From Escherichia coli (GTDB taxonomy: Bacteria; Pseudomonadota; Gammaproteobacteria; Enterobacterales; Enterobacteriaceae): DNA of 64,000 nucleotides. The DNA is taken from NCBI RefSeq assembly GCF_024298765.1, contig NZ_CP101210.1; one strand, 5' to 3'. Below, one piece after another: positions 1 through 22,369 of this stretch. Position 1 is the stretch's first letter. Each line of letters begins with the position of its first letter. Position numbers and translations under genes: made by a program. The notes below the pieces were generated by a model. That model saw nothing but the letters and a program-made list of their open reading frames with translations, did not search any database and was not told the DNA's origin.

Positions 1-661
1 GGTAAAAGTACAGTTTTGCATTCAGCCGCCATGTCACGATTCTGGCACTCTGTACGGTCAGGCGGTCGGCCACCGGGCGGGTATCCTCTGCATTCAGAAC
101 GGCGCGAACGGTATTAAGCAACGCCTCCGTTGCTGTGCCGTCGCCTTCAGTGGACAGGATGGAAACCGTCACATTTGCCGGAGACGGACTGATAGCCCGC
201 GCATCACGCACCAGACCGCTGGCGCTGCGGGCAAAATACTCGTATGCACCTGACGGGCCAGCAACACTCAGGCCGTCGTACGCCCGTTGCGCCCGCAGTC
301 TCAGCGAGGTGTCGCTTTCCATCACCGCGTCGGTGGTATCCGTTGCCGGAGTGATAACCAGGCGCTTTGTGTTCATATTGCCCGCGAGGTTGTCCAGGTC
401 TGTCCCGGCGCTGTGGCTTAACATGCAGGCGCGTGCACCCTCATTGACCCGCTGGCGTAACAGCATTTCACGAAACGCTGTTGTCTGGGCGATAACGTTC
501 AGGGGTTCCGATTCCAGCTCCAGCGCGGCGGAGACGGCTTCACGCTGTTCGGCGGGATAAGCCGCAATCATCATGGCCTTTGTGTCAGCCAGAATTGCCT
601 CAAAGTCAGGCTCCGCGATGATGGCGGGGTCCGGTAACTGTGAAAGGTCAACGGCGGGCAT
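1..661 (-). CDS. baseplate assembly protein J (P2 gpJ-like), 5' part only; 3' end lies beyond window start
   Basis: Minus-strand ATG at 661 three nt after W stop; translation begins MPAVDLSQLPDPAIIAEPDF, matching the remembered P2 gpJ N-terminus; position after W as in P2. Confidence 0.75.
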   Translation of the reverse strand, partial: MPAVDLSQLPDPAIIAEPDFEAILADTKAMMIAAYPAEQREAVSAALELESEPLNVIAQTTAFREMLLRQRVNEGARACMLSHSAGTDLDNLAGNMNTKRLVITPATDTTDAVMESDTSLRLRAQRAYDGLSVAGPSGAYEYFARSASGLVRDARAISPSPANVTVSILSTEGDGTATEALLNTVRAVLNAEDTRPVADRLTVQSARIVTWRLNAKLYFY

Positions 662-664
662 GAT

Positions 665-1015
665 TTACTCCCTTAGCGTGATGGTTAATTCAACATTCTG
701 CATGGTCTGCATGACAGTGCCCGACAGCGTCACCCCGGCGCGGCCTCCTGCCTTCCAGACAACGTCGATGGCATCCAGGGCAATGCGGGGTTCCCATCGT
801 GTCAGCGCAATCACGGCAGCACTCATGCATTGCAGACGCGTGGTGTTATTCATGGGTTCGTCAATCAAATCAGGCACAAGGCTGCCATATTCCCGTCGCA
901 TAACCCGGCTTGCCAGCGGGGTGGTCAGGATGTCCCTGACTGACTGTTTCAGGTGCTCCATATCGTTCAGGTTTCCCGTCCCGTCCGGATTCATTCCTGT
1001 GTAGCGGGTTGTCAC
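665..1015 (-). CDS. baseplate assembly protein W (gpW/gp25-like)
   Basis: 116-aa ORF, size and position between V and J as in P2. Confidence 0.8.
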   Translation of the reverse strand: MTTRYTGMNPDGTGNLNDMEHLKQSVRDILTTPLASRVMRREYGSLVPDLIDEPMNNTTRLQCMSAAVIALTRWEPRIALDAIDVVWKAGGRAGVTLSGTVMQTMQNVELTITLRE

Positions 1016-1593
1016 TGCGGGCCTCCTGTCGAATCGCTGCCGCCTTTCACGCCACCGTGTTTATGCGTATGCACTGTGATGCCGTTTGAGGTGAAATCGC
1101 CGCCGCTGTGCGTGATATTGCCGCTCATCTTTCCCCCTTTTGTGACGTCAAGCGTCGCTGTTCTCAGAAGGTCTGTGCATTCCACGACGGGCGCGTCCAG
1201 TGTCACGCTGACGGATGCCTGCAGGGTGGCTGTTTTCATGCCGCTGGCGCTCAGCGCGCCTGCGTCCGCGTCGTAGCGGAACACCGCGCCGTCCGGCGCG
1301 CTGACCACGATTTCTTTCAGGCTTTTGCCGGGGGGCGGACTGGCATCACTCCACAGGCTGCCAATTATCATGGCGGTTTCCGGGTTGCCGCCAATGCAGG
1401 CAATTACCACCTGTTCGCCGGGTGATGGCGGCAGCCACACATTGAAGGCTCCCGCGCGCGTGGTGTTCCAGCGCAGCCAGCCTGTTTCCAGTCCGCCGCT
1501 GCGAACGCGCACGCGCCAGGACTTCTCATCAACTTCAGAGATGATCCCGGTACGGATGATATTGCTCAGCAGTCGCATGAGTTCTGCGCTCAC
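1012..1593 (-). CDS. baseplate spike/assembly protein V (gpV-like)
   Basis: 193-aa ORF overlapping W start by 4 nt, P2 order S-V-W. Confidence 0.8.
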   Translation of the reverse strand: MSAELMRLLSNIIRTGIISEVDEKSWRVRVRSGGLETGWLRWNTTRAGAFNVWLPPSPGEQVVIACIGGNPETAMIIGSLWSDASPPPGKSLKEIVVSAPDGAVFRYDADAGALSASGMKTATLQASVSVTLDAPVVECTDLLRTATLDVTKGGKMSGNITHSGGDFTSNGITVHTHKHGGVKGGSDSTGGPQ

Positions 1594-2234
1594 CGTACAG
1601 CCTCCGCAATCCGACCCAGCACCGTGTTATAAATCAGGCGCTCATCTGCCTGGCTGATACCCAGCAGCTCACGTACCGGGTAATCGGTGAAAATGCCCGG
1701 CGCAACCTGATCGCGCTCACCGAACTGATGAACGCGTGCAATACGTGCGGCCACGCCGCTGTAACCCACCGTCACACCGGAAGCATCTGCACGGGCTTTC
1801 AGGTAGCGGGCGGTGCGCAGTTTTACGAACATGGGGACGCGCTTTGTGCTGTCCTGGTTGATGCGCCGGGTGCGTATTTCCAGAAAACGGTCGATGTCAT
1901 CCCGGTAAAACGTGCGGATATTGTTTTTATCCTCATCCCACCCGGTAATGGTTCGCCCGTATTTCCCCGTGTCGTGATGCCAGTTTTTCAGCGTGCGTGC
2001 TTCGTTATTCCAGATAAAGCGAATGCGCTCCTGTATCCGGGTTACGCGGCGTCTGCGAGGTGTCCACGCGGTCCCGTCCGGCGCTTTCTGTGACCGGATA
2101 CGTGCCTGCTGGGCGCGGCGTAAATCCTGTGCCAGCTTTCTGGCGATGTTATTGATGACCTGCTGATTCAGGCTGTCGCGGATGGCCTCAAAGGTTTCAT
2201 CCACACGGGTGAATGCCTTATCCATCGCTTTCAC
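1590..2234 (-). CDS. tail completion / virion morphogenesis protein (gpS-like); true start may be internal
   Basis: ORF between R and V in P2 order; 214 aa is longer than P2 gpS so the start is uncertain. Confidence 0.7.
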   Translation of the reverse strand: MKAMDKAFTRVDETFEAIRDSLNQQVINNIARKLAQDLRRAQQARIRSQKAPDGTAWTPRRRRVTRIQERIRFIWNNEARTLKNWHHDTGKYGRTITGWDEDKNNIRTFYRDDIDRFLEIRTRRINQDSTKRVPMFVKLRTARYLKARADASGVTVGYSGVAARIARVHQFGERDQVAPGIFTDYPVRELLGISQADERLIYNTVLGRIAEAVR

Positions 2235-2685
2235 CCCACGTCACATCCTGGAATACATGCGACCAGTCGCCTTCGGAAGAGGGCAGACGGGGTTTTGGCT
2301 CTGGCAGGTGTTCTGCCTGCGGTGTACCCTGACTGCTGCGCGTAATGCGAACGCGTTCCCGCAGGGGGAGCGTAAACAGGAGATCGGCGCTGTCATCGTC
2401 ATTGATAACGGCGGAAAATTTGATGTCCTGATTACGCTCCGGATTGAGCAACAACTGTGGCTGATTTTCGGATAACCACGCCAGTAGCGGCAGCGTGAGG
2501 TCGTCCAGCTCCCCGGCGTAATCCATGACAAACATCACCATCTGATAGCGGTAAACAAACGAGGGCGTTTCTCCGGTCGTTTCAATGTTGCCGCTCTCCA
2601 CGAAAATGGTGAATTTTTCCGGGTTGGCCTGACACCATCGGCATGAACGGGTCATGGCTTCACGCAGGGAATCAGTTTTCAGCAT
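2218..2685 (-). CDS. tail completion protein R (gpR-like)
   Basis: 155-aa ORF, same size as P2 gpR, located after the lysis cassette. Confidence 0.75.
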   Translation of the reverse strand: MLKTDSLREAMTRSCRWCQANPEKFTIFVESGNIETTGETPSFVYRYQMVMFVMDYAGELDDLTLPLLAWLSENQPQLLLNPERNQDIKFSAVINDDDSADLLFTLPLRERVRITRSSQGTPQAEHLPEPKPRLPSSEGDWSHVFQDVTWGESDG

Positions 2686-2962
2686 GGTTGTTGTCCTCGT
2701 TGTTCAGTCGTTGCAGCCTGCGCTGTTCCAGTAATTCAATGGCCCGTTTATCCGCGTTACAGGTTTCCAGTGCATCCAGAAGGCGGTCGCCCCATATACC
2801 GAGATTTCCCCATGTGGGAGTGTCAGGGAAGGGGGGAGGCGTTACCGGTATGGTCAGCGTCTGCGGTATAAGCCGGACTGACGGCGCTGGCCGTGGCGCG
2901 TTCTGCGTGCCTGCGCAGCCTGTCAGTAAAACGAGCGTCAGGCAAAGCGTGGGCGCATTCAT
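2672..2962 (-). CDS. o-spanin (LysC/Rz1-like outer-membrane lipoprotein), start at internal Met
   Basis: Signal peptide with lipobox LLTGC; proline-rich; nested out of frame in the 3' part of the i-spanin gene. Confidence 0.6.
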   Translation of the reverse strand: MNAPTLCLTLVLLTGCAGTQNAPRPAPSVRLIPQTLTIPVTPPPFPDTPTWGNLGIWGDRLLDALETCNADKRAIELLEQRRLQRLNNEDNNHAEN

Positions 2963-3230
2963 CTTTTGCAATATCGTTGCGTAGCTGTTCACGTCTTGCC
3001 TCTCCGTCCTGATTGCGTTGCTGATTTTCCACGCGGAGTTGCGCCAGCACCTGCTGCATATCCTGTACCCCGGCGCTAATGATATTCAGGGTGTCGGCGG
3101 TACGTTTCAGGGTGCTGGCCTGCGCTTCGTTTCTGGCGTTCTCCCGGCCCAGCGACCATGACAGACGCATGGATGTTCCCCATGCGGCAATCAGAAGGAA
3201 AGCGACACCCAGCGTGGGCCAGAGCTTCAT
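2823..3230 (-). CDS. i-spanin (LysB/Rz-like), start at internal Met49 of the track ORF
   Basis: ATG at 3230 overlaps the endolysin stop (ATGA); N-terminal TM (LWPTLGVAFLLIAAW) followed by a charged coiled-coil-like region. Confidence 0.6.
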   Translation of the reverse strand: MKLWPTLGVAFLLIAAWGTSMRLSWSLGRENARNEAQASTLKRTADTLNIISAGVQDMQQVLAQLRVENQQRNQDGEARREQLRNDIAKDECAHALPDARFTDRLRRHAERATASAVSPAYTADADHTGNASPLP

Positions 3231-3619
3231 GCCGGATAGACTCCGTGTGGTAACTGAAAATGCGGTCCGTCTTTCAGGGTCTTCCAGTCGCCGCCCCATT
3301 CCACCGGAATATTCAGCTCCCGGCTGGCCTGTCTGAATGCTGCTGCGATTTTTTCGTACAGCGGCCATTCCCATGACACCTGGCTGCCGATATAAGCCAC
3401 AACATCCACGGCATGTCCCGTAAGGTGGCGGCTGTTCATGGTCTGGCTCTTACCTGTGGCCACAAGTTGCTTCTGGCGGTAACGGCTGCGCAACCCTTCG
3501 GTGATACCAAAATCCACTTCCGAAATTTCCAGTGCCCGTCGGGTCACTTTCACCAGATCAGGATTTACGCCCTGCAAATTCTTTTCGCTCCGGCTGCTGA
3601 ATTTAAATGTGTTGCTCAT
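3227..3619 (-). CDS. endolysin, peptidase M15-like (L-Ala-D-Glu / D-Ala-D-Ala peptidase type)
   Basis: 130 aa with SRHLTGHAVDV zinc-peptidase-like motif; sits between holin and spanins. Confidence 0.7.
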   Translation of the reverse strand: MSNTFKFSSRSEKNLQGVNPDLVKVTRRALEISEVDFGITEGLRSRYRQKQLVATGKSQTMNSRHLTGHAVDVVAYIGSQVSWEWPLYEKIAAAFRQASRELNIPVEWGGDWKTLKDGPHFQLPHGVYPA

Positions 3620-3939
3620 TCGTCCTTCTCCTTCCCCCTGCGATTAAAGGCCGCAATAACCTTGTCGCGTGCTTTCTCTGCGCCCATAAAACCGATTGAT
3701 GCGCCGATAAACGTCACGGCATCTTCAGGAAACCCGAAGAAGCGCAACGACCCGGCCACGGCCATGGCAAGAACGCCGCACGCCAGCGATCCCGTTACGG
3801 TCTGAACCAGTGTTCGTCCGTCATAAAGACTCATCAGCGCGGAAATGCTGACTGCCGCGCCTACTGCATACACCGTTGGCAGGTGGTCAAAGAGCCACGC
3901 AATAACCTGCTCTGTGATCCCTGTTTGAATGGTGCTCAC
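3616..3939 (-). CDS. holin (GTG start inferred)
   Basis: GTG at 3939 preceded by GGGAG, 2 nt after X stop; about 108 aa with hydrophobic TM segments and a charged C-terminus; overlaps endolysin start. Confidence 0.55.
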   Translation of the reverse strand: MSTIQTGITEQVIAWLFDHLPTVYAVGAAVSISALMSLYDGRTLVQTVTGSLACGVLAMAVAGSLRFFGFPEDAVTFIGASIGFMGAEKARDKVIAAFNRRGKEKDE

Positions 3940-3941
3940 TG

Positions 3942-4148
3942 CTACTCCCCCCACAACTGAATCATTTCTCGTTTCTTCTTCTCCGGCTCCGGCATCTCCA
4001 CGTCCTGCCCGGCGTCCAGAAATACCTGCTGACAGAGTCCGGGGTTGGCATCCAGCACCTTTTCGGTGACGCCCTGCGTCGTGCCGTAGTACCGGAAACA
4101 GAGCGAATCCACGGTGTCGCCTTCCAGTGCCTTCACTTTCATCAGCAC
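3942..4148 (-). CDS. tail protein X (gpX-like)
   Basis: 68-aa ORF between L and the holin, P2 order L-X-Y. Confidence 0.75.
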   Translation of the reverse strand: MLMKVKALEGDTVDSLCFRYYGTTQGVTEKVLDANPGLCQQVFLDAGQDVEMPEPEKKKREMIQLWGE

Positions 4149-4645
4149 AACTCCGCAAAAATTCGCGGGCGGCGCAGAATGTCAGAGATGGCCCAGCTCA
4201 CATCGCGCCACAAATCCGATGTCTGTATATCCAGTGCGTCCGCCCGGCGGTCGCCCTTATCCGTTGTGTCCGCATCGCGGTAACGCTCCAGAATCAGGGC
4301 GCGTGTGGCGGTATAAACGGCATTGCGCCAGTGCCAGAGATTGACGCTTTCTCCGTTAATTACGGGTGCCGGAACATCGGCCAGCGTCTGATGGCCAGCC
4401 GCCTGCTGTTCCTGCTGCCATGCTTCCAGCTCGCGGGTAACGTGAGCCACCGCCCCGGTGGCGGTATGCAGCAGGCGGGAGGTGGTCACGCGCCCCGGCA
4501 GTCGTACCGCCAGACGCAGCTCACGCAGCACAATATCCGGCCAGAATGCACCCGCTGAAATACGGGTATCACCATCATCGGTATCGGTGATGTCGTCCTC
4601 TGCGGGTCCGGGGTTGGTTCTGGCAACCATACTCATGGGGTTCAC
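4142..4645 (-). CDS. head completion/stabilisation protein (gpL-like)
   Basis: 167-aa ORF following terminase small subunit M as in P2. Confidence 0.8.
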   Translation of the reverse strand: MNPMSMVARTNPGPAEDDITDTDDGDTRISAGAFWPDIVLRELRLAVRLPGRVTTSRLLHTATGAVAHVTRELEAWQQEQQAAGHQTLADVPAPVINGESVNLWHWRNAVYTATRALILERYRDADTTDKGDRRADALDIQTSDLWRDVSWAISDILRRPRIFAELC

Positions 4646-4737
4646 TCCTGAAAAAATCGGGCGGTGGGTGCGCGGTGTAAACGGTCACGGAGTCAAACCG
4701 GAACACCGCGCACGCCGCCCGCTGACGGGGTCAGTCG

Positions 4738-5538
4738 TTAACCGCGCTTCGCCTTCTGCGTCGCGGTGGTTTTTCGTGTTGCAGGCTTCCGCGTTGTCTT
4801 TTTACTTTTGCTGCTTTCGTTCTGCGCCTGTGGTGTGCTGGCATCTTCTGGTGCGGCTGCGGAATCGGCTTTTTTCAGAGCGCGGGAAAGGGTTGCAATC
4901 TCGCGTTTCACACCTGCGTTCGGGTTCAGGTGCATCGCTTCGCGCAGCAGCTTCAGTGATGAGGCCATGCTGTCCGCATCGCTCAGGCTACGGCGGGCAA
5001 AGGCGCACGCCTTGCATAATTTGGCTCGCACTTCGTCCGGCATATCCTGGTTGGCGACAATTTCCCAAAGTGTGTCCAGTGGTTCGATAAAGGCGGACAA
5101 ATCCGCGTCGGCATCCGTCCCGGCCTGCGTCAGTACCGGGTTGCAGATTTCTTCGGTCAGTACCGTGGCAGCAGTACGGCCAAAGTTATCCGGCATGATG
5201 AGGTTGTGACGGACCACATACGCACCAATACGCAGCGCAAGCGGAAGATCGCCGCAGTCAATTGCCCACACCATCAGCGTGGCAATCACTTCATCCTGCT
5301 GCCCGCCGTCAGCCTCCAGCGTTCCCTCAATCCAGCCGGAAAAGTCCGGCAACAACTCTTTTTTGATGGCGGCTTTCGCGCTTCTGGCCTGTACCCCCTT
5401 AAGTCGGGCCTGTGCCAGACGCAGACGATACAGCACCTCTTCATGCGCGGTACGCGCGGCGTGGTCCACGCCTTCATTCGCCCGGCCTGCGCGCTGTGCC
5501 ATCACGTTCTGCCAGTGTTGCTGTGCAGGAGTAATCAT
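4738..5538 (-). CDS. terminase small/endonuclease subunit (gpM-like)
   Basis: 266 aa; N-terminus and MPDEVRAKL segment match the remembered P2 gpM; lysine-rich C-terminal tail. Confidence 0.85.
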   Translation of the reverse strand: MITPAQQHWQNVMAQRAGRANEGVDHAARTAHEEVLYRLRLAQARLKGVQARSAKAAIKKELLPDFSGWIEGTLEADGGQQDEVIATLMVWAIDCGDLPLALRIGAYVVRHNLIMPDNFGRTAATVLTEEICNPVLTQAGTDADADLSAFIEPLDTLWEIVANQDMPDEVRAKLCKACAFARRSLSDADSMASSLKLLREAMHLNPNAGVKREIATLSRALKKADSAAAPEDASTPQAQNESSKSKKTTRKPATRKTTATQKAKRG

Positions 5539-5583
5539 TTTTTCTCTCCGTTACAGGCGGGCATGATGCCCGCCGTGAGTTGA

Positions 5584-6636
5584 TTAGCTGTCGGCGAACT
5601 TCAGGCCAGTGACCATCGCGCACTTGCCATAGTCTTCAACGACATAAGCGTCATTGATGGACTGGTAGGTGGCGATGCGGTTGTATTCCGGCTCGTCTTT
5701 CATCAGGCGACGCATTGTTCCTTTCTGCCAGTAAATCGACAGGTTATTGAACGAGGTGATCAGCATCGTTGAATCCGGGAAGAACGGCGCAAGGAATACA
5801 TCCAGCCCGCCAATGGCGCGCGATGACAGGATGAGCTGTCCGGCAAGTAATTCCGCATTGGGATTCTGGCCGCTGATGCTGTTCAGCACGGGCAGACGCA
5901 GCGAGTTAAACAGGTTGCGCCCCATAATCACCACGAGGTCGTCAGCTTCCTTGTGCCATTCATCCAGCAGGGATGAGCGCGCGTCCTGTACCAGTGCATC
6001 AGCGTTCGCATACTTACCCGCGTGCGCCACGGTGTTGTCCATGTTGCGGGAGGTCAGCGTCACGTCATTCATTACGCGCTCGCTGGCGTCGGTTCTGATG
6101 TGCTCCAGCCATCCCACGTTAACGTCCTGAAGCAGCTTGTTGGTGCTGAAGTTGGACTCATCTGCGTGAGACGTGCCGTTGAAACCGATCATGATGCGGT
6201 CAAGCGCCACCTGCCGGGCAATCTGTGTGCTGACGCGTGACTGAAAATCAGGGTGTGCCGCCCAGGCATCAAGCTGCGGATACGAAATAAACGTGTCGTA
6301 GTTCACCTGTTCGCACTGATATTTGCGGTTTTTCAGATCAACCACGTTATTCGGGTTACGGCGTTTTGTGCCGTCATAACTGGTATTCGTGCGCGCAATC
6401 GGCCCGGTGGTGTCCAGGAGGATTTTTTCGCCTTTCTGGTCGGTCACACCGAACACGTTAATTTTTTTTGTAAATTCAGTGCTCTCCTTTACTGCGTTTT
6501 CAAAACGCTGCTGCACCGAGGGTTCCACGGTAAATCGCGATACCAGTGCAGATACCGGGATGTTGTTAAGCGACGCCTGCTGCGCCATATAGCAACCCAG
6601 CTTGTTGCGGGTAATATCTGACATCACCAGATTCAT
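5584..6636 (-). CDS. major capsid protein (gpN-like); start may be an internal Met
   Basis: 350 aa; FTVEPSV and YVVEDY segments match the remembered P2 gpN. Confidence 0.85.
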   Translation of the reverse strand: MNLVMSDITRNKLGCYMAQQASLNNIPVSALVSRFTVEPSVQQRFENAVKESTEFTKKINVFGVTDQKGEKILLDTTGPIARTNTSYDGTKRRNPNNVVDLKNRKYQCEQVNYDTFISYPQLDAWAAHPDFQSRVSTQIARQVALDRIMIGFNGTSHADESNFSTNKLLQDVNVGWLEHIRTDASERVMNDVTLTSRNMDNTVAHAGKYANADALVQDARSSLLDEWHKEADDLVVIMGRNLFNSLRLPVLNSISGQNPNAELLAGQLILSSRAIGGLDVFLAPFFPDSTMLITSFNNLSIYWQKGTMRRLMKDEPEYNRIATYQSINDAYVVEDYGKCAMVTGLKFADS

Positions 6637-6659
6637 AAAAAATTTGCTCCTTTGTCTTA

Positions 6660-7496
6660 TCAGAAGTCAGCCAGTTGATCGGAGGCTGCGCCCGTTGCGG
6701 TGAACCGGTTCTGCGGATCGCCGTCCTGCGTGCGCAGTTTTTCCTTCAGTGCTGTCAGCTCTGTGGTCAGTAAAGTGATTTTCTGGCTGTCCTGCTGATG
6801 GCGGGTTTCCAGCGCATTAAAACGGTCGATAATGTCGGCCTGTGACGTTGCGACACCTTCCACCGCTTCCTGAATACGGGAGAAACTGGCGTCATCCGCT
6901 TTGCGGCCACGGCCAATAATCCCCATAACGCGGTTAAACCACTGGGTGCCTTCTTCCTGACGTTGTTCGGTGAGTTCGATAAGTTCTGACTCCATAGCGG
7001 CGGTAAACATCGCCACGTCTCCCTGCTGACAGTTGAATGTCATCAGTTGCATACGTTGTTGTGCCGCAAAGGCCAGACGTTCCGTGCCCAGGCTGGCGGG
7101 GGTGTCGGTCATTGCCAGCCCGCGCAGGTAAGGGCCTCCCGTGATGGTTGACTGTGGTTCCAGCTCAATACTGGAGTAAATTTTTTTACCATCGTTAAGC
7201 AGGGACATCATGCGAGCGGTCGGCTCAATTTCGGCATACAGTGCCGTGCGACCTGCCAGCGGGCCATCGGTTATGTCTTCGGTGCTCAACCCCACAACAT
7301 CGCCCATAGCGGAAAACTCGCTACCGGGGAGTGGTGACAAGATGTGCTCAATATTCACACGTGCACCATAAACGGACGGGTTATAACTGGTGGCGGCAGC
7401 TTTCAGCATGTCGCCGTTGATTTCGCGCCCGTCTGCCGTTACACCGGAGACAGCCACGCGAAACTTTTTGCGGGATGTCTTTTTTTCATTAGCCAT
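6660..7496 (-). CDS. capsid scaffolding protein (gpO-like)
   Basis: ATG at 7496 preceded by GAGGGG; begins MANEKKTSRKKFRVAVSG, similar to the remembered P2 gpO N-terminus. Confidence 0.8.
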   Translation of the reverse strand: MANEKKTSRKKFRVAVSGVTADGREINGDMLKAAATSYNPSVYGARVNIEHILSPLPGSEFSAMGDVVGLSTEDITDGPLAGRTALYAEIEPTARMMSLLNDGKKIYSSIELEPQSTITGGPYLRGLAMTDTPASLGTERLAFAAQQRMQLMTFNCQQGDVAMFTAAMESELIELTEQRQEEGTQWFNRVMGIIGRGRKADDASFSRIQEAVEGVATSQADIIDRFNALETRHQQDSQKITLLTTELTALKEKLRTQDGDPQNRFTATGAASDQLADF

Positions 7497-7650
7497 AGTT
7501 TTTGCCCCTCTGACTGGTTCTTCAGTCATGATGGCAAAGCGTAACAGGCTGATACAAAGGGCTTTTGTTGTAAGAAAACAGTCAGAACAGGGGGTTAAGG
7601 AGAACGGTTTCGCGCGCGGGTAATCTTCCTGTAATTACTCAGGGGGAGCA

Positions 7651-9402
7651 ATGATTCAGGACGCTTTTGTGCGCCAGCGTGCGCGACAACTTTACTGGCA
7701 GGGTTATCCGCCCGCAGAAATATCACGTCTGATGGGAATAAACCCGAACACGATTTATGCGTGGAAAAAACGCGACCAGTGGGATGAAACGCCACCCGTG
7801 CAGCGTGTCACGCAATCCATTGATGCGCGCCTCATCCAGCTTACTGAAAAACAGAATAAAACAGGCGGTGACTTCAAGGAAATAGACCTGCTGACACGGC
7901 AGCTTAAAAAGCTGCATGATGGCCAGCCGGATGTGATTGCCGCAGGAAAGAAAGGCCGGGCGAAAAAACTCAAAAATCATTTCACGCCGGAACAGATTGC
8001 CGCACTGCGGGAAAAAATCATCAGCAGGCTGGAGTGGCATCAGCGGGGCTGGTTTGACTCCCTGACCCTTTGCAGGGAAGCCGGGATACGTAACAGGATG
8101 ATCCTGAAATCCCGACAGATTGGGGCGACCTGGTATTTTGCACAGGAAGCACTGCTGATGGCGCTGCGTGACGATGTGGTGCAACCTTATCAGCGTAACC
8201 AGATTTTTTTGTCTGCGTCGCGTCGTCAGGCGTTCCAGTTTAAAAGCATTATTCAGAAGGCCGCGGCTGAAGTTGATGTGGAGCTGAAAGGGGGCGATAA
8301 AATCATCCTCTCCAACGGCGCAGAGCTGCATTTTCTCGGCACTTCTGCTGCGTCGGCACAGTCCTATACGGGCAATTTTTATTTTGATGAATTCTTCTGG
8401 GTCAGTCGCTTTGCTGAACTGCGCAAGGTGGCTGGCGCTATGGCAACCCTCAGCGGACTGCGGCGCACCTACTTCTCCACGCCATCCACCGAAACGCACG
8501 AGGCATACGCCTACTGGAACGGCGACCGCTGGAACGAGAAAAAGGCCACGCATAAACGCCAGCGTTTTTCTGTGGACTGGAAAACGCTGCATAACGGGCT
8601 TATCTGCCCTGACCGGACGTGGCGGCAAATTGTCACGCTGGAAGATGTGGTTAATCACGGCTGGAAACACACCGATATTGATGAAATTCGTGATGAAAAC
8701 ACCGAAGACGAGTTCCTCAATCTCTATATGTGTGAGTTTGTCCGCGAAGGGGAATCGGCATTTAACCTGAATATCCTGATTGGCTGTGGTGTTGACGGAT
8801 ACGACGACTGGAAAGACTGGAAACCTTTTGCTCCCCGCCCGATGGGGAATCGCCCGGTATGGATTGGGTATGACGCAAATGGCAGCAGTGGCAACGGCGA
8901 CAGCGGCGCTGTGTCCGTGGTGGTTCCTCCGGCTGTTCCTGGTGGCCGTTTTCGAACGGTGGAGACGCGACGCGTTCAGGGGCTGGAGTTTGAAGAACAG
9001 GCCAGAGTCATTGAAGAGTTCACGTGTCGCTACAACGTGGAACACATCGGCATTGATGTGACGGGCGGGAACGGGGAGGCTGTTTATCAGATAGTGAAAC
9101 GGTTTTTCCCTGCCGCTATTCCGTACACCTTCACGCTGTCATCAAAACGGTCGCTGGTACTGAAAATGCTGCAAATAATGCGTGCAGGGCGGTGGGAATA
9201 CGATCGCGCCGAACGCGAGCTGGTCGCGGCCTTTAACGCCGTGCGTAAGGTGAAAACACCGGGCGGCTTTATCACTTACGAAACGGACCGCGCGAGGGGG
9301 ATCAGCCACGGCGACCTTGCGTGGGCAACCATGCTTGCTGTCATTAACGAACCAATTGGCGGCGAAGGAGAAAACGAGCGTTTCACGGTTATGGAGTTCT
9401 GA
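7651..9402 (+). CDS. terminase large (ATPase) subunit (gpP-like)
   Basis: 583 aa, divergent from O, followed by portal with 1-nt overlap, as in P2 P-Q. Confidence 0.85.
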   Translation: MIQDAFVRQRARQLYWQGYPPAEISRLMGINPNTIYAWKKRDQWDETPPVQRVTQSIDARLIQLTEKQNKTGGDFKEIDLLTRQLKKLHDGQPDVIAAGKKGRAKKLKNHFTPEQIAALREKIISRLEWHQRGWFDSLTLCREAGIRNRMILKSRQIGATWYFAQEALLMALRDDVVQPYQRNQIFLSASRRQAFQFKSIIQKAAAEVDVELKGGDKIILSNGAELHFLGTSAASAQSYTGNFYFDEFFWVSRFAELRKVAGAMATLSGLRRTYFSTPSTETHEAYAYWNGDRWNEKKATHKRQRFSVDWKTLHNGLICPDRTWRQIVTLEDVVNHGWKHTDIDEIRDENTEDEFLNLYMCEFVREGESAFNLNILIGCGVDGYDDWKDWKPFAPRPMGNRPVWIGYDANGSSGNGDSGAVSVVVPPAVPGGRFRTVETRRVQGLEFEEQARVIEEFTCRYNVEHIGIDVTGGNGEAVYQIVKRFFPAAIPYTFTLSSKRSLVLKMLQIMRAGRWEYDRAERELVAAFNAVRKVKTPGGFITYETDRARGISHGDLAWATMLAVINEPIGGEGENERFTVMEF

Positions 9403-10448
9403 TGAGCAGAAAAAATAAAAAAGTGCGCATGAGTTCACGCATTGATCTCGCTGATGCGCTCAGGAAAGAATCATCGCTCAGTGCATTCACATTTGATGGT
9501 CCTTATCGCCTGACCGGGCATGACCTGCTGGACAATATGTACTGTGCTGATAACGGGCGGTGGTATGAAACCCCGGTGGACTGGTACGGTCTGGCAAGAG
9601 CCGCCCGGCAAACGTCCTGGCATCAGTCTGCGCTTTACTTTAAGCGCAATGTATTACTCGGTTGCTACATCCCGCACCCGCTGCTTTCCCGGCAGGATTT
9701 CTCGGCGCTGGCGCTGGACTGGTTTGTGTTCGGTAACGCATTCCTTGAGCTTCGGAGCAATATGCTCGGCGAACCGCTTAAATTACGGCACGCCCTGGCG
9801 AAATACATGCGACGCGGAAGCGATCTTGAATCATGGTGGTATGTGCAGGATGGCAAGGACGCGTTCCAGTTTCGCCCTGGCAAAGTGTGCCACCTGATGA
9901 ATCCGGATATTAACCAGGAAATCTACGGCATGCCGGAATATCTTGGCGCATTACTCTCGGCCAGCCTTTCTCATTCGGCGGACATGTTCAGAAAACTGTA
10001 CTACGACAACGGATCCCACGCCGGGTGCATCATCTACATCGGTGCAGCGCAGGTAAACCGCGAAAGCATGGACTCCCTGAAAGAAACGTTACAGGGTGCG
10101 CGTGGTGGTGGTGCATTTAAAAACGTGCTCATTCATGCGCCCAACGGGGGCAAAGAAGGGGTGCAAATTTTGCCGTTCCAGCAGATCACCGCAAAAGATG
10201 AGTTCATGAATGTTAAGGCGGCATCCCGTGATGATGTGCTGGCTGCGCACCGCGTTCCGCCGCAACTGATGGGGGCGATGCCGGGCGAAAAAAGTGCGTT
10301 TGGTGATGTGGAGAAGGCCGCGCGGGTTTACGCAATTAACGAGCTGATGCCCGTCATGGAGGCCATGAAGCACATCAATGACTGGCTTGGCGAAGAGGTG
10401 ATCCGCTTTAACCCTTACGCACTGTTAGACACCCAGCCCACATCCTGA
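9402..10448 (+). CDS. portal protein (gpQ-like)
   Basis: 348 aa, size and position match P2 gpQ; last morphogenesis gene before the cos/cargo region. Confidence 0.85.
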   Translation: MSRKNKKVRMSSRIDLADALRKESSLSAFTFDGPYRLTGHDLLDNMYCADNGRWYETPVDWYGLARAARQTSWHQSALYFKRNVLLGCYIPHPLLSRQDFSALALDWFVFGNAFLELRSNMLGEPLKLRHALAKYMRRGSDLESWWYVQDGKDAFQFRPGKVCHLMNPDINQEIYGMPEYLGALLSASLSHSADMFRKLYYDNGSHAGCIIYIGAAQVNRESMDSLKETLQGARGGGAFKNVLIHAPNGGKEGVQILPFQQITAKDEFMNVKAASRDDVLAAHRVPPQLMGAMPGEKSAFGDVEKAARVYAINELMPVMEAMKHINDWLGEEVIRFNPYALLDTQPTS

Positions 10449-10872
10449 CGCGCTTCGCTTGTCTGCTGCTTCGCCGGGGCATAAAAAATTTATGCCCCGA
10501 CTCTCCAGCTCCTGTATCAGTCAGATAATTTCACGACGCTTTCCTGCTGATTGCCATCATCGACAGTCAGACTCTTACGCAATCCCACCGCGTTGACTGC
10601 ATGTTCTCGCCGTCTCAGTGCGATTTTGACGGCCTTACCTTTCACCCCATCAAATCAAAAGCCCTCACGTCTTTTTCACGCTCAGCGTGAGAAATACAGC
10701 CATTCTGTTGTGTCGCTGCGACATCGTTCAGGGGATGCTATTTACCCCCTGAAACGCGGGCTGTTCCCCCGTCACCTGCGCGCAGAAAAAATGCGTTTTT
10801 TTGTGCACGCACGGATCCTTGACGGATCCAGCCACCATGCGGGCCGGAAGGGCAAAAAGTCGTTCAAAAAAA

Positions 10873-10899
10873 TTGTGCAAATTTGTGCACTATTGTGCA
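10873..10899 (+). promoter_or_regulatory. three direct TTGTGCA repeats at 10-bp spacing with a nearby TATAGT; candidate operator/promoter of the cargo operon
   Basis: TTGTGCA at about 10873, 10883 and 10893 (a fourth copy near 10801); TATAGT at about 10904; about 80 nt upstream of the cargo ATG. Confidence 0.35.
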
Positions 10900-10978
10900 T
10901 TTGTATAGTGAAAAAAATATAGCAGAAAGTATACTTAGCGCCTTGTGGGCTACGTTAACTTTGCAGGAACATTTGGAA

Positions 10979-12358
10979 ATGAAAAAAATCAATAAAGAAG
11001 ATTCTAAAAGAACCTTTTTACGTGGATGGTTGCGATTTCTTCGTAGCGTTGAGAGAGCTAAGAAAAAAAAGCCTGCGCAAGAGAAAAATGGTAGTCTTCG
11101 TTTTTCCGATGAAACAACTCCTGTCCAAAACCAAGTCGCTACGTTCATTGAAAATATATCGATTATAAAAGAGTATGACTCATCAATTCTTCGTCGTGAC
11201 GCAGAGAAGATATTAATACCTAAATATTTTGACTTATATGACAATCCAGAGAAATCTCTGCTATTTATTAGTGCAGCCACAAAATTAATTGCAAGAGGTA
11301 AATGGAAATCATATATTTTTGATTACAAGAAAAACAAAAAACACTGTCTTGGTCTTGAGTGTCTATTAGGTGTTGCTCTTACAGCAGCAAGGCAAAGTAA
11401 TATAAATTTCAAAGATACGATGATTCAGATTAATGGTATCTACCCTAAAGATGAACAGTATCTTGAAATTATCAGGGATGTCGGGCTTGTAAAAGAGATT
11501 AGTAATGCTGCACCAGGTAAAGTTCTGGACTCTACTGAAGCATCGAAAAAAGCGAATCCGAAGAAACGAATCTTCTCTGCTGATAGTATCGGAAAGGAGA
11601 ATGCTTCTGCCTTTGCCCATGACAGAAAAAATGTCACTGCTGAAAAATTTACCGCATACATAAACGAATGCTTAAATGATCATAATTTAAAACTTGTACA
11701 TGAGGCAGAAAAGCATTTAACTTCCTGCATGGGGGAACTCCTTGATAATGCGGAGCGGCATTGTGGGTTAGAGCAACGCCCACGCTGGTATTTGAGAGGT
11801 TTTGTTAATAATAACGTACGAAACCCCATATGTGAGTTGGCTGTTTTCAATTTTGGGAAAACTATCAGCGAAACTTTTGATAATTTACCTGAGGATCATT
11901 TTTCATTAAGTCAACAAGTTAATCCATACATAAATAAGCATATTAAGAAAAAGGGTATGTTTAAGGAAGGATTAACAACAGTAGCGGCCTTGCAAGGGCG
12001 GGTGAGTTGTAAAAACGAGAAAGAAACTGACAGTTCTGGCACCGGAACAATTGAATTATTGAAGTTATTTCAAGATATGCATGATAATCTTAAAAAAATG
12101 GGAAGAGATATTAAAGGTGGGATAAAAATGACTTTAATATCTGGTAGTACTCATATTAACTTTGATGGATCATATAAATTAAAGCAAAGGTTGGTTAATG
12201 ACGAGGAAAGTGACATTTTTACTTACCCTTTTAATGATGTAGGGCTTGAATCTGAACCGGATCGCAACTATCTTAAGCGTATGAAGGATGCTCGATTTCC
12301 TGGAGTTATGATCAATATTCGTTTTCCTCTACCAGAAAACGCCACCCAGCGAACTTGA
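10979..12358 (+). CDS. cargo gene 1: GHKL-type ATPase / anti-sigma-factor-kinase-like protein, 459 aa from ATG 10979
   Basis: N-box-like ELLDNAERHCG, possible degenerate G1 (FNFGKT) and G2 (SSGTGT) boxes; AT-rich; AGGAA 8 nt before ATG; the track start at 10883 is a TTG. Confidence 0.6.
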   Translation: MKKINKEDSKRTFLRGWLRFLRSVERAKKKKPAQEKNGSLRFSDETTPVQNQVATFIENISIIKEYDSSILRRDAEKILIPKYFDLYDNPEKSLLFISAATKLIARGKWKSYIFDYKKNKKHCLGLECLLGVALTAARQSNINFKDTMIQINGIYPKDEQYLEIIRDVGLVKEISNAAPGKVLDSTEASKKANPKKRIFSADSIGKENASAFAHDRKNVTAEKFTAYINECLNDHNLKLVHEAEKHLTSCMGELLDNAERHCGLEQRPRWYLRGFVNNNVRNPICELAVFNFGKTISETFDNLPEDHFSLSQQVNPYINKHIKKKGMFKEGLTTVAALQGRVSCKNEKETDSSGTGTIELLKLFQDMHDNLKKMGRDIKGGIKMTLISGSTHINFDGSYKLKQRLVNDEESDIFTYPFNDVGLESEPDRNYLKRMKDARFPGVMINIRFPLPENATQRT

Positions 12359-12368
12359 GGACAGGTAC

Positions 12369-12713
12369 ATGAAAATGGCTGACATCACCATAGATTTCAA
12401 TAAGTTAGTAAAAGATAGTAACAAGAAACTTTTTGCTGGACGTTCTAATGGGCGCCAGGCCTATGATTACTTTAATATAGGGAAATTTTGCACAACCAGT
12501 AATGATAGATTATATCTATTGATCCCCAAGGGAATTGTTGTATCAAGCTCATACTTTCTAGGTATGCTTGAAACGGTTTTGCCGAAATTTTCTTCGCCTA
12601 GCGAATTTTATAGTCGCACTGTACTTGATGGTCGTGAATATAAAGAAGGTATGCTTTCTGAATTAGATAGAGCTGTAAGGAGAGGCTTACATAAAAATGT
12701 TCCCTTCTTTTAA
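12369..12713 (+). CDS. cargo gene 2: small STAS-like (anti-sigma-factor-antagonist-like) protein, 114 aa
   Basis: GAGGA 8 nt before ATG, overlapping the stop of gene 1; segment LLIPKGIVVSSSYFLGMLETV recalls the SSSF-type STAS-like signature. Confidence 0.55.
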   Translation: MKMADITIDFNKLVKDSNKKLFAGRSNGRQAYDYFNIGKFCTTSNDRLYLLIPKGIVVSSSYFLGMLETVLPKFSSPSEFYSRTVLDGREYKEGMLSELDRAVRRGLHKNVPFF

Positions 12714-13506
12714 AAATATTTTTCAAATCAAAATGACAGCGCTGTCTGTCATTTTTTTTATATTCCCCGCAGCTTGCTCTGTGACAGATTTTTCCAATAA
12801 AGAAAACATTGAATGTAATGAGTCACTTTATCCAAACACGCCTTTTTATATTTCCGATTCAGGACTTAGTGGTATATCATCACCGTTTTTGTTATCCGGA
12901 AACCCGAATGATGGCTTGATGTTTTGTGAAAAGGCAAACGACACCTTTCATAAGTTATCTCTGGCAAGGGATAACAAAAAAGATTTATTTACTAATTATT
13001 TCAAAGATGTTCCAAATTCCTATGATATATATAATATTGTAAAGGTTCCGGAAAATGGTCCAGAGTGGATTTCTATTGGCATCTCTTTATTTGCTTTAGT
13101 TTCATCCTTTGTTATTCCTTGTGTTCAACATAGAAAAGAACGTAAAGAAGCTATTAATGAAGGGTATTGGGTAAGAGAAGTAATTATGCCTAAAATTAAT
13201 GGGTTGGCATTCGATGTTGTGCAAAGTTTTAAAAACTCCATGGCATTATCAGAAGAGGAGTTTCTTAGTGTATTCAGTAATACTCTTTTACCAAAACTAG
13301 GAGAGTTACGGGATTCATTATATTTGTTTAATAGTTTTCCAGAATTAAATGCAGATATTGAAAATCTAGAAAGTATTTGTGACTCCTTGGAGGAAGAAGT
13401 TTCCAATCATATAGACTCGCCTAATGAAATAAGAATTTCTGATATATCAATGTTTCATTCCAAATTAATACAGAAATTAATTTTACTTCATAAGAAGATA
13501 GGTTGA
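12697..13506 (+). CDS. cargo gene 3: membrane protein, candidate effector (N-terminal signal/anchor, one internal TM, acidic C-terminal domain)
   Basis: Overlaps gene 2 by 17 nt; hydrophobic N-terminus TALSVIFFIFPAAC and TM WISIGISLFALVSSFVIPCV; AT-rich. Confidence 0.6.
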   Translation: MFPSFKNIFQIKMTALSVIFFIFPAACSVTDFSNKENIECNESLYPNTPFYISDSGLSGISSPFLLSGNPNDGLMFCEKANDTFHKLSLARDNKKDLFTNYFKDVPNSYDIYNIVKVPENGPEWISIGISLFALVSSFVIPCVQHRKERKEAINEGYWVREVIMPKINGLAFDVVQSFKNSMALSEEEFLSVFSNTLLPKLGELRDSLYLFNSFPELNADIENLESICDSLEEEVSNHIDSPNEIRISDISMFHSKLIQKLILLHKKIG

Positions 13507-13551
13507 TTTTCAAGGCCTCCTTATTCCTAGGGCGGCCTTAGCTCTATATTT

Positions 13552-16344
13552 CTATCGTGTTCGATGCAATAAACTGATTTTTTTGCGAGCATGTTTAGTG
13601 GTTTCACTGATTCTCTGTGCGTGCTCTGCGTCGCGGATGGCGCGCAGCATGTCAGAAAGTACGGTAACGGGTGTTTTCATGGTGTTCTGGTCTTGCTGAA
13701 GTGTGGATGCCAGGCGTGCGGCGGCTTCAGGGTCTGATGCCTCTAGTTGTTCCAGATAGCTGGCGACCGGGTTATGGCGGATCTCCGTGCTGCTTACGCC
13801 GTGATTACGACTCAGGCGTTGCCAGAGCTGCGTGATTCGGCTGTCCGGGCGGGTATCCTGTTTGCGTACAATTTCAAATCCCTGCGGTGCAATGATGCTG
13901 CCGCCAACGTACAGACTGCCGCCTCGTAACAGGTGCTGCATCTGCTGTTCACCGATATGCAGGCCGAGAGATTCAGCAGACTCCCGCCATTCTTTAGCGA
14001 GTAACTCGTGGTTATCAGGCAAAGGCTGTGGCTGTTTGCGGCTCTGTGTCCAGTTCTGCATTTCATCACTGCTGTTTTTTGCCTGTTTGTCACGCAGCGA
14101 ACGCATCAGTGCCCGGCGTTCGTGCCGTTTCAGTGAGCGCATCCATTCATTCACGTCAACGCCTTCAGGAAGCCGCGGCCACGGTGCTGGCCGTTCTTCC
14201 GGCTGTTCTGTCCCGTTGTTGTCCGTTTCCTGTACACGGGGACAGTTATTGCCACGAGTCCAAGGGGCGGCAGGGCCGCCCTGAAGGTCAAAACCATTTT
14301 CGCGGGCGCTGTCTTCCGTTTCCGGTTTACGTCTTACCAGTTTCCAGTTATCCGGATGCGTGCACACACGGGAGGATTCCCCGATGAGTGGTGACCAGAT
14401 CCCGTAAATCTGTACGCTCTGTTCGCCGTAATCATTCAGCTCATCTGCGAGGTCGTAGGCGGTGCGAATCAGGTAGTCTTTGCGTGGAACAAGTACGCCG
14501 CCCTGTTTTTCAATGTAGGTGGCAAAACACCCGGCATCGGCGGCAGCGAGTACCGCATCCATTGCGTCATCTTTCAGTCGTTGCGGGCCTTCCGGGTTGC
14601 GTGCCATCTGGCTGGCAAGGCGGCGCAGTTCACGCCACACCTGACGGGAGGGGATGCCAAAGAACTGGAACTGGCGGACCCGATGAAGGCGCGCCCAGCC
14701 GATGGCGCGCTCCACACTCTCGGCCATTGATTTTCCGGTTTCGTGGTCAACGCGTGGCTTGCCCGTTTTCGGGTCGATGCCATCCACGGCGCGGCTGTCC
14801 AGGTTCTTTCCGATGTAGGTCGCGATATAGCTGGTTGGTGTGCCTTTTGAGCCGTCGACATACTCCGCCTTAAAGCGCGGAGTAATATCATTGCCCAGCT
14901 CGTGGCGGTCTTCCTGAATGGCAATATCGCGGGTGATGGCCACGATGCTGTCGATTTCTTCCGGATGAGCAAAGACCATCATATGCCAGTGCACGGTGCC
15001 GTCATGGTGAGGCTCCACCGTGCGGATGCCATACCAGCGAAGACCGTCGCGGTTCAGTTTTTTGCGGACCGCCGCAAAAAACGTGTTAACCAGGTAATCG
15101 CTGGAGTCGCGCATGGTGGCCCCGTTCCATTTGGGATTCGGATGACCGTTCTCTGTTGTGGCGTGGTATTTTGACGGGCAGGTGACAGTCAGAAACACCG
15201 CTTTGTCGCCACGGGCTTCGGCCAGAAGTTCCAGCCCCTTCATGGTGGCCATCATTTCTGCCTTACGGTGAACCGGGTTACTTACTCCCGCGTAATACAC
15301 CGTCTCGAGATCAATCGTGAACCCGTCTTCGTTTTCCAGCATGAAACTTTTCAGGAAATCGCGTGTTTTCTCGCGCTGTGCGCGAAACTCGCTTAACGCG
15401 TCCTGGCTCAAATAGGGCGATGTTTTTCTGGAAACCAGACAGGCGGCGCGGAGTTGTTCTTCTCTCCACTCGCAACGTAACAGCCACAGTTTGCGTTTCC
15501 ACCATTCCGCACAGGTCAGGCGAAGGATTGCGCCCGGCAGCAGTTCTGTGTCCGGTTCGTTCCTCCGGTCTTTGTCTGTTGTCAGTGCGTCATAATGCGG
15601 AGGCATGGCGTGCAAGTGTAACGCCATGCGGGCCAGCATCTGATACGCCTTCAGCGTTACATCCATGGTCAGCTCGCCATCGGTCGCGCCAAAACCATCG
15701 CAGAGTTTTTCGAAGGTGCTGCTGAACATCGCCGCCGTCATGGTGGCCAGCGTCTGTATCTGGTGTTTGTTGAGTTGCGGCAGGTAAAGCAAATCGTCCA
15801 GGCGTTCACGTCCGGCAAGGGACCGATAACCCGGTGTCAGCCAACGGCTGTCGGTGCGGTCCAGACGTACGAATATTTTGCGCAGGGTTCCGCGCGCGTA
15901 GCGTTCAGCCTGCCAGCTCTTTTTGCCTTTCTGACGATCGGATTCCTGTTTTTTGCGCAGGAAAGAGAGGTGGCGGCTCAGAGGTTCACGCAGATAAACG
16001 GGAAGCACCTTCAGTGTGGCAAAAGCACGGGCCACCGGGTCTTGTTCTGTTGCCTGACGCTTGCTGATGATGCTTTGTGCCAGCTTTTCACGCTGTCCGG
16101 CTTCCTCAAGGGATGCCATGAGTTTTTTACCCACGGTGGATTGTGCGAAAAAGGCTTCCTCCTTCGCTTCCTGTTCTTTCCGGGCCTTTTTGTCCGCCTC
16201 AAGGTAGTAACGGATGGCGCGTTGCAGCTCGGTTTCAGTTTCCTGCCTGCGCTCCGTAAATCTGTCCGGATCAATGGCTGGCCGTGGTTCATTCCAGCTC
16301 CATGCAAACTCACTCATGGCTGGTATCCCGTCACGCGCTGCCAC
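13552..16344 (-). CDS. replication initiation endonuclease (P2 gpA-like, rolling-circle HUH type)
   Basis: 930 aa with HWHMMVFAH HUH-type motif; position between early genes and cargo as P2 A. Confidence 0.8.
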   Translation of the reverse strand: MAARDGIPAMSEFAWSWNEPRPAIDPDRFTERRQETETELQRAIRYYLEADKKARKEQEAKEEAFFAQSTVGKKLMASLEEAGQREKLAQSIISKRQATEQDPVARAFATLKVLPVYLREPLSRHLSFLRKKQESDRQKGKKSWQAERYARGTLRKIFVRLDRTDSRWLTPGYRSLAGRERLDDLLYLPQLNKHQIQTLATMTAAMFSSTFEKLCDGFGATDGELTMDVTLKAYQMLARMALHLHAMPPHYDALTTDKDRRNEPDTELLPGAILRLTCAEWWKRKLWLLRCEWREEQLRAACLVSRKTSPYLSQDALSEFRAQREKTRDFLKSFMLENEDGFTIDLETVYYAGVSNPVHRKAEMMATMKGLELLAEARGDKAVFLTVTCPSKYHATTENGHPNPKWNGATMRDSSDYLVNTFFAAVRKKLNRDGLRWYGIRTVEPHHDGTVHWHMMVFAHPEEIDSIVAITRDIAIQEDRHELGNDITPRFKAEYVDGSKGTPTSYIATYIGKNLDSRAVDGIDPKTGKPRVDHETGKSMAESVERAIGWARLHRVRQFQFFGIPSRQVWRELRRLASQMARNPEGPQRLKDDAMDAVLAAADAGCFATYIEKQGGVLVPRKDYLIRTAYDLADELNDYGEQSVQIYGIWSPLIGESSRVCTHPDNWKLVRRKPETEDSARENGFDLQGGPAAPWTRGNNCPRVQETDNNGTEQPEERPAPWPRLPEGVDVNEWMRSLKRHERRALMRSLRDKQAKNSSDEMQNWTQSRKQPQPLPDNHELLAKEWRESAESLGLHIGEQQMQHLLRGGSLYVGGSIIAPQGFEIVRKQDTRPDSRITQLWQRLSRNHGVSSTEIRHNPVASYLEQLEASDPEAAARLASTLQQDQNTMKTPVTVLSDMLRAIRDAEHAQRISETTKHARKKISLLHRTR

Positions 16345-18843: not shown

Positions 18844-19248
18844 ATGAAAAATGATATTGGTCAGCGGTTGCGTGAGGAAAGGGAAAGATTGGGGCTTAGT
18901 CAAGTTGCTATGAGCGAAATTGGTGGAGTCAAAAAGCTAACTCAGCTTAGATATGAGAAAGGAGATAGCTTTCCTGATGCTGCGTATTTGGCAGCGCTGT
19001 CTCGTTTTGGCCTTGATGTTCAGTATGTTGTGTTGGGAATTCACTCACCTGAAACTTATAACGATGATGAGCAGGAGTTGATTACTCGCTTTCGAGCAGC
19101 TTCGTTAGATGTAAAAAACGCGGTGATCGGGGCTTTAAAAAGTGCGGGCAGTGAAAAGGAAACTCAGCCATCAGGGCGTGAGTTAAATATTTCTGGTGGT
19201 AATAACCGTATCGCTGGTCGTGACTATAACGAAACTAAGGGTAGGTGA
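18844..19248 (+). CDS. immunity repressor (CI/C-like, HTH XRE family)
   Basis: 134 aa; N-terminal LREERERLGLSQVAMSEIGGVKKLTQLRYEKG helix-turn-helix; divergent from the early operon. Confidence 0.75.
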   Translation: MKNDIGQRLREERERLGLSQVAMSEIGGVKKLTQLRYEKGDSFPDAAYLAALSRFGLDVQYVVLGIHSPETYNDDEQELITRFRAASLDVKNAVIGALKSAGSEKETQPSGRELNISGGNNRIAGRDYNETKGR

Positions 19249-19263
19249 TAGTAGGGAGGTGAC

Positions 19264-21298: not shown

Positions 21299-21404
21299 AA
21301 AGTGGCGATAAAAAGTGACAATAGATTCAAATGGCGTCGTATAGAGCTATTTGCAAAGTTAATAAAATCATAAGGTTATGATTTATAAATGGTGGTTGAT
21401 AGTT

Positions 21405-21459
21405 TTTAAAATCCCTCGGCGTTCGCGCTGTGCGGGTTCAAGTCCCGCTCCGGGTACCA
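21405..21459 (+). other. prophage attachment-site core: 55-nt duplicate of the tRNA-Leu (leuZ-type, anticodon TAA) 3' end, not an intact tRNA
   Basis: TTTAAAATCCCTCGGCGTTCGCGCTGTGCGGGTTCAAGTCCCGCTCCGGGTACCA matches the remembered 3' portion of E. coli leuZ; the upstream 5' half does not fold as an acceptor stem. Confidence 0.7.
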
Positions 21460-21502
21460 TGGGAAAGATAAGAATAAAATCAAAGCAATAAGCAGTGTCG
21501 TG

Positions 21503-22320: not shown

Positions 22321-22329
22321 GAGGTCAAA

Positions 22330-22360: not shown

Positions 22361-22369
22361 AAGATCTAA

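Follow-up and report, generated by a model that had tools for sequence, protein, structure and literature searches.

Gene content of the lysis locus

The DNA analysed here (the window) is a stretch of 64,000 nucleotides (nt) from Escherichia coli (contig NZ_CP101210.1 of assembly GCF_024298765.1), and positions 1 to about 21,300 of it hold part of a P2-like prophage that reads on the minus strand. This study deals with its lysis cassette, a set of four genes for a holin, an endolysin, an inner-membrane spanin (i-spanin) plus a spanin of the outer membrane (o-spanin), which fill the interval between the tail genes X and R on the minus strand, within the late morphogenesis operon. An initial annotation had placed the cassette at 2672-3939 and these boundaries are exact, 2672 being the o-spanin stop and 3939 the GTG start of the holin; no further minus-strand open reading frame (ORF) of at least 40 amino acids (aa) was found between them. 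As observed in its gene identities and families, catalytic-residue conservation, architecture, near-identity to sequenced phages and frequency in the population, it is very probably the canonical cassette for three-step lysis in a P88-like E. coli prophage (Peduoviridae, genus Xuanwuvirus). The coordinates are collected in Table 1.

The protein in the endolysin slot had been noticed for a motif of the M15 zinc-peptidase type, SRHLTGHAVDV, and this motif is indeed present as residues 63-73 of the 130-aa endolysin. A profile search of M15 against lysozyme families, which had been proposed along with that reading, gave a match to Pfam PF13539 Peptidase_M15_4 above the gathering score (E=8e-12, 46 bits, cutoff 25) and none to any lysozyme or glycosidase family. 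The protein also matched PHROG 465 'endolysin' (E=8e-77) and the solved structures of ChiX (5opz, E=3e-48), of 8q2g (E=4e-46), annotated as a peptidoglycan L-alanyl-D-glutamate endopeptidase, as well as of the T5 endolysin (2mxz, E=9e-23). It is 61.9% identical to ChiX over 126 residues, and its R44, H65, D72, D117 and H120 are aligned to R47, H68, D75, D120 and H123 of ChiX. ChiX is a crystallised zinc enzyme of the LAS family which converts E. coli muropeptides to GlcNAc-MurNAc-L-Ala, with His68, Asp75 and His123 as zinc ligands and Asp120 essential for activity (PMC5778951); its product identifies it as an endopeptidase for the L-Ala-D-Glu bond. The endolysin of RB49, whose locus is 63% identical to the window enzyme, is a characterised L-Ala-D-Glu peptidase, and W112 in the window enzyme is the counterpart of EndoRB49 W109, a conserved tryptophan of importance for the function of EndoT5 and EndoRB49 (PMC10487532). 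The family match, the His-x6-Asp motif with a distal His, the catalytic Asp, the substrate Arg and this Trp are thus all found, as in members of the M15C/LAS group. The enzyme is therefore predicted to be an L-alanyl-D-glutamate endopeptidase, the bond specificity being taken from the 62%-identical ChiX. No hydrophobic or signal segment was found in it (maximum 17-residue hydropathy 0.83), so that it should be soluble and dependent on the holin. Its homologues occur in 1,326 phage records from many morphotypes. NCBIfam gave no match for the endolysin or for either spanin.

The holin matched PF05106 Phage_holin_3_1 (E=1e-19, 71.1 bits, cutoff 23.8), which places it in the lambda S family, and PHROG 126 holin/anti-holin (E=1e-34). 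Its identity to lambda S is 23% over 60 aa, and its hydropathy peaks at residues 26-38, 50-65 and 74-87 are parallel in position to those of lambda S, the three-segment topology being a crude hydropathy calculation and not the output of a topology predictor. The C-terminal tail carries 12 charged residues among the last 20. The start codon is the one annotated in the P88 RefSeq record. No dual-start motif was seen in this protein: the GTG is its only start, Met-Lys-Met is absent and R42 is the first basic residue, so a lambda-style antiholin would not be formed. A dual-start or antiholin reading through the in-frame upstream GTG at 3954 was rejected, as this codon lies inside gene X and no charged residue would be gained. 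ChiW also has no dual-start motif (PMC4259817), and the motif is thus not universal in the lambda S holin family.

The i-spanin has an N-terminal transmembrane segment at about residues 1-23 by hydropathy and a single cysteine, C92. It is weakly similar to lambda Rz (E=0.004) and to DUF2570 (E=2e-4, under the gathering score); no similarity to P2 LysB could be detected, and TIGR03495 was not matched. The o-spanin carries the lipobox LTGC with mature Cys26 and Ala27 at +2 (no Asp), contains 12% proline and also matches PHROG 3001/456; it had no match to NCBIfam P2_Rz1. Its gene may start at GTG 2992 (106 aa, with the Shine-Dalgarno sequence GGAGAGG 6 nt upstream) or at ATG 2962 (96 aa). P88 and the Citrobacter phage Shae_phiSM both keep the full ORF of 106 codons, and the real o-spanin gene is likely this conserved ORF with the GTG start and the GGAGAGG Shine-Dalgarno sequence. 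In the P88 RefSeq record the o-spanin gene is not annotated. The Prokaryotic Genome Annotation Pipeline (PGAP) gives a LysC of 65 aa whose ATA start comes after both the signal peptide and the lipobox. In public annotations the o-spanin is thus absent or truncated at its N-terminus.

The reported ATGA overlaps linking holin, endolysin and i-spanin are real and are read as 'tcat' on the plus strand at 3616-3619 (holin stop and endolysin start) and 3227-3230 (endolysin stop and i-spanin start). The spanin genes had been described as nested, and this part could not be retained. The o-spanin gene lies in the +1 frame relative to the i-spanin gene, shares 140-170 nt with it and starts inside it, but it ends 151 nt beyond the i-spanin stop at 2823 and 14 nt into R; the embedded reading was rejected from these coordinates. 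Overlapped and embedded spanin genes have been defined as distinct architectures, with P2 lysB/lysC as the textbook example of the overlapped one (Kongari et al., PMC6139136). In P2, lysB occupies 7922-8347 and lysC 8202-8492, running into R at 8455. The spanin genes of the window have the overlapped architecture of the P2 LysB/LysC type.

Table 1. Features of the prophage and of the host chromosome located in the window.
Feature	Position	Strand	Assignment and remarks
o-spanin precursor gene	2672-2992	-	PF23793 LysC, E=9e-14, 51.5 bits (cutoff 27)
i-spanin gene (135 aa)	2823-3230	-	PHROG 214 Rz-like spanin, E=1e-40
Endolysin gene (130 aa)	3227-3619	-	Single-domain soluble M15 (M15C/LAS) zinc peptidase; PF13539, PHROG 465
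Holin gene (107 aa)	3616-3939	-	PF05106, PHROG 126; GTG start with GGGGGGAG ahead
Exchangeable segment	3235-3638	-	Endolysin gene and last 23 nt of holin gene
Tail gene S	1590-2234	-	gpS-like virion morphogenesis; Pfam match
Tail completion gene R	2218-2685	-	PF06891 P2_Phage_GpR, E=5e-40; 38% identity to P2 R
Tail protein gene X	3942-4148	-	PF05489 Phage_tail_X, E=2e-20; 48% identity to P2 X
Head completion gene L	4142-4645	-	Late gene
Small terminase gene M	4738-5538	-	Late gene
Capsid gene N	5584-6636	-	Late gene
Scaffold gene O	6660-7529	-	Late gene
Portal gene	9402-10448		Flank of hotspot module
Hotspot three-gene module	10979-13506		35-37% G+C; between portal gene and replication gene A
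Module gene (459 aa)	10979-12358		
Module gene (114 aa)	12369-12713		
Module gene (269 aa)	12697-13506		
Replication gene A	13552-16344		Flank of hotspot module
Host-chromosome small RNA sites (listed together)	39671-39748, 53007-53314, 57250-57292	-, +, -	Rfam

Relationship to P88 and distribution in E. coli

Over window positions 2600-4200 (1.6 kb) the DNA is 98.2-99.6% identical to that of at least seven phages (500465-2, Chuche, PhiR44_2, P884B11, P88, 520873 and 503458), which are classified in Peduoviridae, genus Xuanwuvirus. In comparison to P88, the cassette has 98.3% identity in DNA and 97-99% in its proteins (99.2% for the endolysin), and the identity over 8 kb is 96%. The genes, their order, overlaps and start sites are all alike in P88 and the other Xuanwuvirus phages (500465-2, P884B11, 503458, 520873 and Chuche), point substitutions being the sole difference in sequence. 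P88 itself is mitomycin-inducible and forms clear plaques (PMC5285337). Of the 5,426 complete E. coli genomes, 1,007 contain the cassette with a coverage of at least 80%; the RefSeq names of its products in these are phage holin family protein, M15 family metallopeptidase, DUF2570 protein and LysC. It is the normal lysis module of Xuanwuvirus, already known and routinely annotated. The discovery value is accordingly small, since the cassette has been sequenced in named phages and labelled in about one fifth of the complete E. coli genomes, and a 62%-identical homologue of its enzyme has been both solved and assayed.

Comparison with P2 and exchange of the endolysin gene

A departure of the cassette from the P2 prototype had also been proposed; it stands for the endolysin and the missing lysA, whereas the arrangement of the spanins is the same as in P2. 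The P2 cassette (Y-K-lysA-lysB-lysC) has the same position between X and R and the same overlapped spanins with the o-spanin gene running into R, and P2 LysC shares the Pfam family LysC PF23793 with the o-spanin of the window. In case of the holin, P2 Y belongs to PF04550 whereas the window holin is of the lambda-S type (PF05106), a difference that the initial annotation did not include. P2 K is a lambda-R-type lysozyme, set through PDB 1am7/3d3d (E=4e-44) as Pfam and NCBIfam gave nothing for it, whereas the window enzyme is an M15 peptidase. P2 possesses LysA and LysB; the window cassette has an i-spanin unlike LysB and no lysA, and a tblastn search with P2 LysA over all 64 kb gave nothing at E<=1. 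The P2-Y holin, lysozyme K and LysA which mark the P2-prototype lysis cassette are thus not found in this one.

At the DNA level P2 and window 1-8000 have just two stretches of 60-90 nt in common, at about 76% identity, and the flanking L, X, R and S proteins are homologous to their P2 counterparts with 26-48% identity. Since these flanking proteins are homologous while the holin and endolysin families are unrelated, a non-orthologous replacement took place at some point during the descent of the two lineages. The low likeness of DNA and proteins makes this a comparison between genera, which can neither date nor localise an exchange. The difference from P2 is therefore one of genus level, and a recent swap into the backbone of P2 is not supported. 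A recent review on the diversity of P2-like viruses does not mention the lysis genes (PMC13100340).

An exchange within the genus can be seen by comparison with Shae_phiSM, to which the window aligns at 95-97% up to position 3639 and again from 3234 (BLASTN). The segment in between has as its counterpart in Shae_phiSM a 615-nt segment with a GH108+PG_binding_3 gene, and the C-termini of the two holins differ accordingly. The GH108 form of the gene is annotated in 32 E. coli genomes; the breakpoints were mapped against Shae_phiSM only. Modular exchange is thus real, with the endolysin gene as its unit inside the genus Xuanwuvirus and the M15 form as the majority state. The mosaic exchange claimed earlier thus holds as a single-gene endolysin exchange in this genus, and fails as a recent or notable swap into a P2 backbone. 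The M15/GH108 swap is a clean natural case of such an exchange, with breakpoints mapped to the holin gene's end and the i-spanin gene's start.

It may be speculated, though we consider it unlikely, that the endolysin slot is a maintained dimorphism (M15 in about 1,007 and GH108 in 32 E. coli genomes), possibly under selection instead of neutral mosaicism, with lysis timed in the absence of both the lambda dual start and the P2 LysA antiholin. In that event the dimorphism might be driven by differences in host peptidoglycan or by inhibitors of one enzyme class from hosts or competitors. The E. coli prophages termed 'P2-like' are in any case not uniform, as those of Xuanwuvirus combine a lambda-S-type holin with an M15 peptidase and have no LysA.

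Proposed mechanism and alternative interpretations

With the bond cleaved, the size of the holes, the timing of lysis and the action of the spanins modelled on characterised homologues, lysis by this cassette may be envisaged in three steps. The lambda-S-type holin with three transmembrane domains would build up in the inner membrane and form large holes at a programmed time. These holes would let out the soluble, signal-less 130-aa zinc metallopeptidase, pre-folded in the cytoplasm, which would then cleave the L-Ala/D-Glu bond in the stem peptides of peptidoglycan. The inner-membrane i-spanin and the outer-membrane lipoprotein o-spanin would make up a complex spanning the periplasm which, once free of the murein mesh, may fuse or disrupt the outer membrane. 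The ATGA junctions probably couple translation of the holin, endolysin and i-spanin.

None of the observations contradicts the assignment as a canonical lysis cassette, but some of them limit it. The holin reached 54.0 bits with the NCBIfam equivalog TIGR01594 holin_lambda, about 1 bit short of the cutoff of 55.05, and it lacks the lambda dual-start antiholin. No curated cutoff of Pfam or NCBIfam was passed by the i-spanin, whose assignment comes via PHROGs alone. Further, the left part of the prophage with the tail genes is outside the window. This last point, together with the fact that many P2-like prophages are non-inducible, may suggest that the prophage is a decaying remnant whose cassette is no longer expressed or functional. 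We think this very unlikely, as the ORFs in the window for lysis, head, terminase, portal, replication and integrase functions are all of full length, protein identity to P88 is 97-99%, and the start codons, Shine-Dalgarno sequences and lipobox are conserved.

Two other explanations concern the function of the gene products. PF13539 bears the title 'D-alanyl-D-alanine carboxypeptidase' and some phage homologues are annotated so, from which the 130-aa protein might be taken as a VanY-like D-Ala-D-Ala carboxypeptidase that trims stem peptides and is not a lytic endopeptidase. However, its close characterised relatives (ChiX at 62%, 8q2g, T5 EndoT5, RB49 and Ply500) are all L-Ala-D-Glu endopeptidases, its gene occupies the endolysin slot in the holin-spanin interval, and a carboxypeptidase would not lyse cells; we regard this explanation as highly improbable. 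Even less credible is a non-lytic secretion system made of a holin and a peptidoglycan hydrolase, like Serratia chiWXYZ (type 10 secretion). The component set is the same as in chiWXYZ (a single-start holin-3 holin, an M15 endopeptidase with 62% identity to ChiX, and a pair of spanins). The surroundings differ, however: chiWXYZ belongs to a chitin-utilisation locus that has no phage genes close by, whereas the window cassette is found in a phage late operon amid head and tail genes, has 98% identity to the cassette of the plaque-forming P88 and has no adjacent cargo gene. Neither the phage-free chromosomal locus nor the linked secreted cargo of a ChiWXYZ-like type 10 system is thus present. 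A phage lysis cassette remains the preferred interpretation.

Prophage setting and neighbouring genes

The prophage has terminase, portal, gpA and integrase genes, and its cassette is flanked by L, X, R and S. The order L-X-holin-endolysin-spanins-R-S agrees with the P2 late operon, and the V and W genes come after S. Gene X adjoins the cassette on its upstream side, an order shared with P2, and has its TAG stop 2 nt before the holin start; gene R is the downstream neighbour. The gpS-like protein is longer than its P2 counterpart (214 aa vs 150 aa); its Pfam match is split in two stretches, and about 60 inserted residues in the middle of the protein are needed to align P2 S. In a scan of 1500-8000, the count of promoter- and terminator-like sites was not above the expectation from shuffled sequence; a single terminator-like site was located at 3852-3833, within the holin gene, and the o-spanin gene showed no attenuator of the P2 kind. 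Rfam gave no RNA family in the prophage, its only matches in the window being three host small RNAs above the gathering scores (C0465, MicL and ES036/CssrF). No transfer RNA gene was found in the whole window; the prophage is therefore not at such a gene within the part seen.

The three-gene module between the portal gene and replication gene A occupies the position of an antiviral hotspot of P2-like phages (PMC9122126). Pfam and PADLOC gave no match for it, and it is complete in just 22 of the 5,426 E. coli genomes. The chromosome of E. coli WS1933D (NZ_CP035836.1) carries the DNA of window 10450-13550 with 100% identity at positions 21022-24122. Comparable arrays of 464-465, 113-114 and 213-257 aa are present at the equivalent site in a Klebsiella prophage, homology having been checked for the large protein only, and in Vibrio parahaemolyticus, where the comparable three-gene array adjoins a type I restriction gene. 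The module looks like an uncharacterised candidate defence module of the partner-switching type. The lysogeny end (18844-19914 and 20297-21298, both on the plus strand) comprises a helix-turn-helix repressor-like gene (134 aa), a 216-aa ORF and a tyrosine integrase. The 216-aa ORF, in a region of about 41% G+C, had no Pfam or PADLOC match and may be further accessory cargo. Host genes follow from about 21655 with a UPF0149/SEC-C protein and then a Trp/Tyr permease.

Comparison with other lysis systems

Like the window endolysin, EndoT5, EndoRB49 and 8q2g belong to M15C, consist of a single domain with a length of about 130 aa, and share the H-x6-D...H zinc site as well as the conserved Trp. 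Their carriers, on the other hand, are virulent T5-like and T4-like phages with other holins and spanins, and EndoT5 is regulated by Ca2+. The Serratia marcescens ChiWXYZ system has, as here, a single-start holin of the holin-3 (lambda S) family, an L-Ala-D-Glu M15 endopeptidase and a spanin pair (PMC4259817). ChiX and the window endolysin have identical SRHLTGHAVDVVA and LKDGPHFQL motifs; the sequence comparison covers ChiX, the likeness of ChiW, ChiY and ChiZ being at family level. ChiWXYZ is chromosomal, located in the chitin-utilisation locus and reported as non-lytic (PMC4259817), whereas the window genes are part of a prophage late operon, and this phage context points to lysis and not secretion. 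In case of lambda S-R-Rz/Rz1, the holin has the same length (107 aa), family and a parallel profile of three transmembrane domains, and the order of holin, endolysin and spanins is the same. In lambda, however, the antiholin comes from a dual start, the endolysin is a transglycosylase and Rz1 is fully embedded, whereas in the window cassette the holin has one GTG start only, the endolysin is a peptidase and the spanins are overlapped.

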